A stretch of 57,948 bases of DNA from Escherichia coli (GCF_003334315.1 NZ_QOWR01000026.1), one strand, 5' to 3'. Numbered from the stretch's first letter, positions 21,481 through 22,672 are shown. The notes: generated by a model from the sequence alone, not told the origin. Made by a program: numbers and translations.

Positions 21481-22628
21481 CATGCCACCTCCTGAGTCAG
21501 CGCAGGGAGATGGGCGCGGCACTGCATCAGTGGTTGAATGCGCTCGCCGAAGGTTTCGATTCCCGACAGAAAATCATCGAAGGTGAACAGCACGCCTTCG
21601 GCACCAGGCACGCTTGCGACTTCATCTAACATGCGCGCGACACTGGCGTAAGAACCGACTAACGTCCCCATATTGATGTTTACCGCCGAAGTGGGATCGG
21701 CCATCTGACGGACGTTGGTATCAGTACCGGAGCGGGTATCTTTCTGACTTTGTTCGGTTAGCCAGCTTAACGCCTCTTCATCCGCGCCCGCTTTGTAGTG
21801 TTCCCATTTGGCGCGAGCGGCATCGTCGGTTTCATCGGCAATCACCATAAACAATACATAAGAGCCAACGTCGCGCCCGGTTTGCTCTGCGGCCTGTTTC
21901 ATCCGCACAGCGGTCGGGGCGAAAGCCGTGGGTGTATTTACACCTTTGCCGAAACAGAAGTTGAAATCGGCATACTGGGCGGAGAACGCCATGCCAGCGT
22001 CGCTTTGCCCGGCGCAGATCACTTTCATGGGGACACTCGGTTGCGGACTGACGCGACAATCATTCATGGTGAAAAAATCGCCTTTAAAATCGCTTTTCCC
22101 CGTGCCCCACAGGTCGCGCAGCACCTGAACATATTCGGTGAGATAGTCGTAACGACGGGAGAAATAGTCATCGCCAGGCCAGATACCCATCTGCTCATAC
22201 TCGGGCTTTTGCCAGCCAGTCACGAGGTTGACGCCAAAACGCCCGCCAGAGATGGAGTCGATGGTTGCGGCCATACGGGCGACGATTGCCGGAGGTAACG
22301 TTAAGGTGGCAGCAGTGGCGTAAATCTGAATGCGCGAGGTGACGGCCGCCAGTCCCGCCATCAAGGTGAACGACTCAAGGTTGTGATCCCAGAACTCAGT
22401 TTTGCCGCCAAAGCCACGCAGTTTGATCATCGACAGGGCGAAATCGAAATGGTAGTGCTCCGCTTTTTGCACAATGGCTTTATTCAGTTCAAAGGTCGGC
22501 ATGTACTGCGGCGCGTGGGTCGAAATGAGCCAGCCGTTGTTGCCAATAGGTACGAATACGCCAATTTTCATCATCAACCTCTCTTCGTCTCGTAAAGTGA
22601 AAGTCAGACGGGGCGCTGCATCCTGCAT
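21480..22628 (-). CDS. rutA: RutA pyrimidine monooxygenase (luciferase-like)
   Basis: 1149-bp ORF from ATG at 22628 (382 aa); an alternative start at 22571 ([10 protein letters not shown]..., 363 aa) has the better Shine-Dalgarno. Confidence 0.85.
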
Positions 22629-22656
22629 ATCCTTTTCAGCCGCGTAATGGCTTGTT

Positions 22657-22672
22657 TGCAAAGCGGATGCCA
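22657..22672 (-). promoter_or_regulatory. Candidate sigma-54 promoter of the rut operon
   Basis: Minus strand reads TGGCAT-N5-TTGCA with canonical GG/GC spacing, about 30 nt upstream of rutA ATG 22628. Confidence 0.55.

Follow-up and report, generated by a model that had tools for sequence, protein, structure and literature searches.

The RutA start codon and the leader of the sigma-54-dependent rut operon in Escherichia coli

The rutR-rutA locus

The DNA analyzed here (the window) is a stretch of 57,948 bp from Escherichia coli (GCF_003334315.1, NZ_QOWR01000026.1), and the finding is situated between rutR and rutA, which are followed on their far sides by putA and rutB, respectively. The question concerned is at which codon the translation of RutA, encoded by the pyrimidine-catabolism operon rutABCDEFG, begins. 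The coding sequence of 363 amino acids (aa) plus stop codon occupies 21480..22571 on the minus strand and starts with the ATG at 22571-22569, an assignment that draws on the Prokaryotic Genome Annotation Pipeline (PGAP), the protein family model TIGR03612, and the conservation of the ATG. All further features of rutA and its leader are likewise on the minus strand. Over the 601 nt compared around the finding, the sequence has 100% identity to E. coli strain E2865, and of the 5,426 E. coli genomes available as complete sequences, 5,422 contain a match to the region. When one genome was scanned for each species, 80 rutA loci were obtained, 78 of which include the 5' end of the gene; the promoter comparison comprised 76 Enterobacterales sequences (window included) and three pseudomonad loci.

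The sigma-54 promoter and its upstream sites

A sigma-54 (-24/-12) promoter, TGGCATCCGCTTTGCA, is located at 22657..22672. Read from 22672 to 22657, it consists of TGGCAT, the spacer CCGCT, and TTGCA, with GG at 22671-22670 and GC at 22659-22658, so that the two doublets have the spacing of this promoter class, and it agrees with 10 of the 11 specified bases of TGGCAC-N5-TTGCA. The exact pattern TGGCAY-N5-TTGCW occurs only once on both strands of the 57,948 bp; shuffled sequences contained 0.13 matches on average and at least one match in 12 out of 100 cases. When one mismatch was allowed, the pattern was not enriched in the window (five seen versus 7.1 expected). Since the motif is only moderately significant from the sequence alone, the weight for the promoter is placed on its conservation and on published binding data. 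Each of the 76 Enterobacterales sequences has a -24/-12 motif scoring 9-11 out of 11 ahead of rutA; in the three pseudomonad loci the matches are weak. The distance of the motif to the rutA ATG ranges from 30 to 120 nt among the Enterobacterales sequences and is not a multiple of 3.

Binding data exist for the identical motif of E. coli K-12. By chromatin immunoprecipitation followed by sequencing (ChIP-seq), a sigma-54 peak was observed on CTGGCATCCGCTTTGCA upstream of b1012/rutA (site OS10 in Table 1 of Bonocora et al. 2015, PMC4591121). The site is flagged there as a promoter predicted in EcoCyc and not experimentally confirmed, and its predicted start lies 19 bp downstream from the midpoint of the motif and precedes the K-12 rutA ATG by 18 nt. 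This converts to position 22646 of the window (+/-2 nt), which is also obtained by counting 12 nt from the C of the -12 GC at 22658. Furthermore, genomic SELEX (systematic evolution of ligands by exponential enrichment) with RpoN recovered the rutA promoter spot (Shimada et al. 2021, PMC8743547). A preliminary description of the region, made from the sequence, had reported the near-consensus TGGCAT-N5-TTGCA element and a transcription start near 22646; the former has turned out to be a unique exact match and a published K-12 promoter, and the latter coincides with the literature prediction. A scan of 22300-23000 for sigma-70-like promoters found none. A second sigma-54 promoter within the leader (AGGATATGCAGGATGCA) was considered and rejected by eye, as its GG-to-GC spacing is off by one.

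Upstream of the promoter, two NtrC-like enhancer sites span 22759..22796, namely TGCACTCTCATCGCGCA at 22796-22780 (center -142) and TGCATGTTTTATGTGCA at 22775-22759 (center -121). NtrC recognizes the consensus TGCACC-N5-GGTGCA, with which each site agrees at 9 of 12 bases. The position of the -142 site relative to the promoter is kept in most Enterobacteriaceae loci, including species with a short rutA leader. In K-12, a strong NtrC ChIP-seq peak was found on ycdMLKJIHG, i.e., in this intergenic region (Brown et al. 2014, PMC4066584). Between these sites and the promoter lies the RutR operator TTGACCGTTTAGTCCA (22737..22752, center -98.5). It corresponds to the published rutA RutR site, because the operator TGGACTAAACGGTCAA given in Table 1 of Shimada et al. 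2008 (PMC2475637) is the reverse complement of window 22752-22737. RutR-like boxes are present in 74 of 79 sequences and are located at about -98 across the Enterobacteriaceae, again including the short-leader species. As the NtrC-like and RutR boxes thus stand at fixed offsets from the predicted start, the upstream architecture appears to be anchored on the sigma-54 promoter. Taken together, rutABCDEFG is preceded at 22672-22657 by its NtrC-activated sigma-54 promoter, which is already known as such; the occupancy by sigma-54 and NtrC as well as the binding of RutR are taken from literature on the K-12 sequence.

The translation start of RutA

Four in-frame codons come into question as the start of RutA. 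The longest open reading frame (ORF, 393 aa) begins with a TTG at 22659..22661, which is followed by ATG 22628 (22626..22628, 382 aa), the start in the K-12 reference, by ATG 22574 (22572..22574, 364 aa, MMKIG), which the preliminary description did not mention, and finally by ATG 22571 (363 aa, MKIGVF...). The preliminary description had proposed that the position of the promoter bears on the choice among these starts, and this holds with one qualification. It excludes TTG 22661, which coincides with the first three bases of the -12 element TTGCA, is therefore not transcribed from this promoter, and lies upstream of the transcript as had been stated; that start is, however, used by no database, and the promoter position leaves the choice between ATG 22628 and ATG 22571 undecided, since ATG 22628 is located 18 nt downstream of the predicted transcription start and hence on the transcript in E. 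coli.

The annotations differ at this point. The curated K-12 record NC_000913.3 lists b1012 (NP_415532.3) with 1149 nt and 382 aa, whereas the PGAP model has 363 aa in all of the non-reference genomes that were looked at, including a K-12-like strain, O157:H7, and the identical sequence of E2865. The gene model of the window corresponds to WP_001297176.1 in the identical genome region. When the contigs encoding this exact sequence were counted by form in the protein collection, there were at least 1000 for 363 aa, compared to 38 for 382 aa and 22 for 364 aa. All three forms have been crystallized: the Protein Data Bank (PDB) entry 5WAN contains 382 aa, and 6SGG and 6SGL contain 363 and 364 aa, respectively. 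The start of the 363-aa form is already known, and only the K-12 reference entry disagrees with it.

Several observations support ATG 22571, to which we assign a probability of about 0.85 as the translation start of RutA. Firstly, the codon is conserved as ATG in all 78 loci, where it is followed by MK(I/V)GVF or, in pseudomonads, by MDVGVF. It is preceded by the Shine-Dalgarno (SD) sequence GAGAGG (22578..22583) with a 6-nt spacer, the GAGG core of which is kept at a fixed distance from the ATG and is invariant or nearly so across 54 aligned leaders. The calculated pairing energy with the anti-SD sequence amounts to -8.6 kcal/mol, compared to -5.4 kcal/mol for ATG 22628, where the spacing is only 0-1 nt (AGGA at 22633-22630, then a single T before the ATG). 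Secondly, TIGR03612 (the NCBIfam equivalog model of the RutA pyrimidine monooxygenase family, called 'pyrimidine utilization protein A' by PGAP) was compared with the 393-aa ORF, resulting in a score of 723.5 bits at a cut-off of 498.3; positions 1-354 of the 355 model positions align to ORF residues 31-384, and position 1 corresponds to the Met of MKIGVF.

The sequence between ATG 22628 and ATG 22571 behaves differently. The in-frame sequence upstream of ATG 22571 is unrelated between genera and runs into a stop within 10 codons in 35 of the 78 loci. The 19-codon extension is not conserved, as it is interrupted by stops or frame shifts or is positioned upstream of the promoter in short-leader species. 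In ten loci (L020, L023, L025, L034, L035, L040, L042, L047, L078, and L079, among them Enterobacter hormaechei, E. cloacae, Buttiauxella, and two Rahnella), only 30-37 nt separate the promoter from the ATG (at about 1459-1503 of each locus), so that an extension like that of E. coli would have to start ahead of the transcript there. Within E. coli itself, 15 complete genomes with the exact leader of locus L006 (the change is also found in L089) have a CGA>TGA change at window position 22592, inside the extension, and in the one genome of this lineage that was checked rutA is annotated as an intact gene of 363 aa. (These 15 genomes with 22592 C>T are listed mostly from pigs.) Between the window and L006, the extension shows one synonymous, three non-synonymous, and one nonsense change, and the core of 363 codons shows 73 synonymous and five non-synonymous changes (extension versus core, Fisher p = 3e-4). 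Judged from this pattern, the substitutions in the extension look neutral and the core appears to be under purifying selection.

These data bear directly on ATG 22628 as the functional start, be it with the 382-aa form as the main product of rutA or with a minor isoform beside the 363-aa form. The codon is in frame without a stop in the window, is adjoined by AAGGA, is annotated in the K-12 record as well as on the 38 contigs mentioned above, and a construct starting from it yielded the crystal structure 5WAN. However, its SD sequence is too close and pairs more weakly, and the extension that it would add is conserved neither in sequence nor in frame nor even in presence, lies outside the family model, carries a TGA in the 15 E. 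coli genomes, and accumulates substitutions in a neutral manner. Moreover, outside the Enterobacteriaceae the codon has not been kept as a start, and it is situated inside an element that is conserved at the nucleotide level without coding periodicity. We therefore regard initiation at ATG 22628 as very improbable. A start at ATG 22574, instead of or together with ATG 22571, is unlikely as well. That codon is in frame, has the SD sequence in common with ATG 22571, and underlies both the 364-aa annotation on 22 contigs and the protein used for 6SGL; on the other hand, GAGAGG is separated from it by 3 nt instead of 6 nt, TIGR03612 begins one residue later, and in most other genera the codon is no start at all (CAC, CGT, GCT, etc., with GTG in the Enterobacter group).

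Some points weigh against the assignment to ATG 22571 and should be considered. In the literature searched, neither a discussion of the native N-terminus or start codon of RutA nor a mapped rutA transcription start was found, and we infer both the in vivo initiation codon and the exact transcription start. ATG 22628 combines a position in frame and on the predicted transcript with a nearby AGGA and has been retained in a curated record, and the 382-aa form is also crystallizable. Within E. coli itself, ATG 22574 is inseparable from ATG 22571. Hence, ATG 22574 or ATG 22628 may make a minor contribution, the latter in the form of a minor long isoform. In this context, a Ribo-seq (ribosome profiling) dataset exists for E. 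coli NCM3722 under nitrogen limitation, with rutA-G being induced in these cells (PMC9624429).

With ATG 22571 as the start, the following order of events is proposed. NtrC, bound at about -142 and -121, would activate the sigma-54 promoter, with the RutR operator situated at about -98. Transcription would begin at about 22646 and produce an untranslated leader of about 75 nt, after which RutA would be translated from ATG 22571 through the GAGAGG 6 nt upstream. The 19-codon extension would then be leader RNA and not protein, and ATG 22628 would merely happen to be in frame within a conserved non-coding element. What the preliminary description had said of the two ATG codons, namely that ATG 22628 (382 aa) has an AGGA 1 nt away and that ATG 22571 (363 aa) has a well-spaced GAGAGG, agrees with the sequence, and its preference for the latter is upheld by the conservation, the TGA genomes, the substitutions, TIGR03612, and the SD energies.

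The activation of the rut promoter by NtrC and sigma-54 and its repression by RutR are established biology, and most databases already have the 363-aa start, which makes the finding correct but ordinary. What follows from it is mainly a point of curation: in the K-12 record b1012 (382 aa), and in work derived from it such as PDB 5WAN, 19 residues almost certainly correspond to leader RNA. The numbering of RutA residues, the design of expression constructs, and translation-efficiency analyses based on the 5' untranslated region should use ATG 22571, as PGAP, TIGR03612, and the later RutA structures are already on the 363-aa form.

A conserved element in the rutA leader

The 38 nt at 22608..22645, beginning at +2 of the predicted transcript, form a conserved non-coding leader element that was delineated through alignments, RNAalifold, pair counts, and a covariance model. 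Its putative, GC-rich helix arms are ACGCGGC (22645-22639) and GCCCCGU (22614-22608) with one internal mismatch, and they enclose a first GGA at 22632-22630 as well as UGCA-GGA-UGCA at 22627-22617. ATG 22628 is found in the loop of this element, and both the codon and its AGGA are parts of the conserved block. Across species the block follows the pattern GCG..G ... GGA ... GCAGGA(N)GCA .. GC.GCG, with a conservation about equal to that of the SD sequence and the rutA ATG. The covariance model recovered the element in the rutA leader of about 56 out of 79 sources (from Enterobacteriaceae, Erwiniaceae, and Yersiniaceae); within the 58-kb window it had no other hit. A scan of 22450-22900 against Rfam at E<=10 gave no match, and no description of the element or of any rutA leader RNA motif was found in the literature searched.

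The support for the leader helix from these comparisons is only moderate. RNAalifold predicts the outer helix on within-family alignments of Enterobacteriaceae and Erwiniaceae, whereas on the broad MAFFT alignment it returns only two invariant pairs (the GC/GC clamp). Pair counts for the drawn helix model showed 81-82% of cells paired; in shuffles the value was 76%, with none of 500 as high as observed, and partners that had been slid gave 10-57%. The helix is closed by G-C in 39 sequences and by A-U in nine, the A-U cases coming from related genera, and the innermost pair is C-G in 46, G-C in four, U-G in two, and U-A in one. The support is weakened by the slid controls, whose covariation score on the MAFFT alignment is similar, by the fitting of the second alignment to the helix model, and by the relatedness of the genera with A-U. 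As a single sequence, the E. coli leader folds less stably than its shuffles (z = +1.83), i.e., no strong global structure is found. The upstream GGA is often surrounded by a hairpin in Erwiniaceae; over all leaders, 21 of 53 form it, which is not better than the baseline of 33% that holds for a GGA in general, and the hairpin is not regarded as a common feature. A terminator of the intrinsic type following the helix was rejected by eye, as a U-tract is missing in Erwiniaceae.

It has to be considered whether the block is conserved because it is translated. An upstream ORF (uORF) encoding M-Q-D/E-A-x-P/Q-R... could have become fused in frame to rutA by chance in E. coli, and in many species such an ORF would end near the rutA start or overlap it (ATGA or TGATG). 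Consistent with this, 39 of the 53 distinct leaders have a start-type codon (ATG, GTG, or TTG) 3-6 nt before CAG-GAN-GCA, the conceptual peptides are alike and several end at a TGA overlapping the rutA ATG, and two indels in the block look 3 nt long. The information content by codon position, however, is 1.58/1.38/1.15 in the block, compared to 1.87/1.88/0.95 for rutA codons 2-40 of the same genomes, and the third positions of the block's Gln and Ala codons, like its fourfold-degenerate positions, are nearly invariant, while positions one and two of the codon that follows are free to vary. The conserved UGCA stem by itself creates the NUG 'start', such a start is missing in 14 of the 53 leaders, all three frames relative to rutA occur, and the GGA is only 0-3 nt away from the putative start. 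Because of the codon-position conservation, the origin of the start in UGCA, and the spread of frames, the block is judged to be non-coding, and a translated leader peptide is considered unlikely.

The block is absent in the short-leader lineages (Enterobacter hormaechei, E. cloacae, Buttiauxella, the two Rahnella, and others), while their NtrC-like and RutR boxes keep the distance to the promoter where this was checked. It appears to be dispensable in these lineages, most simply through deletion. In O157:H7 FRIK944 (L003), a 22622 G>A change turns the central GGA of GCAGGAUGCA into GAA. A pyrimidine-rich tract, CUGACUUUCACUUU, is located at 22594-22607 between the leader block and the SD sequence, and CU-rich tracts are found at the equivalent place in most other leaders. 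In the minimum free energy fold of the E. coli leader, the tract pairs weakly with the SD sequence through G-U pairs; it could represent an anti-SD sequence.

Likeness to CsrA-binding hairpins

The leading hypothesis for the leader block is a CsrA-type binding site, which is to be taken as a lead and not as a finding; the resemblance is one of sequence only. UGCA-GGA-UGCA at 22627-17 conforms to the CsrA type of site, i.e., a GGA hairpin with the motif CAGGAUG or RUACARGGAUGU. Like the repeat units of CsrB, the nearly invariant GCAGGA(N)GCA of the rutA leader presents a GGA between short complementary flanks. The csrB of MG1655 contains 22 GGA, six exact copies of CAGGAUG (its commonest unit), and nine of CAGGA[ACU]G, along with CGCAGGACGCG and GCAGGAAGC. 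In the rutA leaders, the GC...GC flanks of the GGA are invariant in 43 of 43 aligned sequences, which is the unit type of MG1655 csrB. By itself, a hairpin is weak evidence, since a GGA occurring by chance has a flanking stem of at least 3 bp 33% of the time. In 51 of 53 distinct leaders, the GGA of this motif is preceded by a second one at a distance of 9-13 nt. The GGA-to-GGA spacing of 9-11 nt in most rutA leaders compares with 10-14 nt as common values in CsrB; it equals the smallest distance that one CsrA dimer can bridge or falls short of it.

CsrA targets usually present a GGA at the SD sequence or start codon, whereas the SD sequence of rutA in E. coli and most other loci (GAGAGGU) contains no GGA and follows about 40 nt downstream. 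Besides this and the low spacing, it speaks against CsrA that the central GGA is mutated in O157:H7 FRIK944 and that several lineages have deleted the block. No link between CsrA and rutA was found in the literature searched. The rut operon is not known to be expressed in rich medium, and crosslinking and immunoprecipitation data from such medium would therefore probably contain no rutA RNA. Altogether, we tentatively consider it possible, rather than probable, that the block is a so far undescribed post-transcriptional control element of the rut operon, most plausibly of the CsrA type, that would link pyrimidine scavenging to carbon status or control mRNA stability. If so, the annotated K-12 start would be a by-product of the GGAUAUG...GGAUG motif. 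A functional leader element could add a post-transcriptional layer to rut regulation and is the only possibly new item in this region.

Neighboring genes and strain variants

The divergent rutR is located at 22859..23497 on the plus strand and encodes 212 aa as annotated (PGAP annotation mapped onto the window, and ORF list). Its longest mechanical ORF starts from TTG 22832 (221 aa) instead of the annotated ATG 22859, adding 22832-22858 on the plus strand; as for rutA, the longest ORF overshoots the annotated start. In the urinary isolate E. coli 98197 (L085), rutR is frameshifted and annotated as a pseudogene, and if this frameshift is true, the rut operon of that strain would be without its repressor. 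In E. coli KFu024 (L087), rutA codon 14 is changed from TGG to TGA (W14*, position 472 of the locus), and PGAP calls a shortened rutA of 348 aa that begins further downstream; rutA function has probably been lost specifically in this strain.

Comparison with the RutA family and strain K-12

At the protein level, the closest known references are the RutA family model TIGR03612 and the 363-aa model of PGAP, which the window ORF matches over the full length from the same Met. The K-12 entry NP_415532.3 and PDB 5WAN differ from this family model by an N-terminus that is 19 residues longer. At the DNA level, the reference is K-12 rutAp (b1012, ycdM operon), of which the 17-nt sigma-54 motif, the predicted start, and the RutR operator are all identical to the window. 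The leaders of K-12 and the window differ at a single position, 22647. There is no difference of substance between the two promoters, and the window represents another lineage of E. coli.

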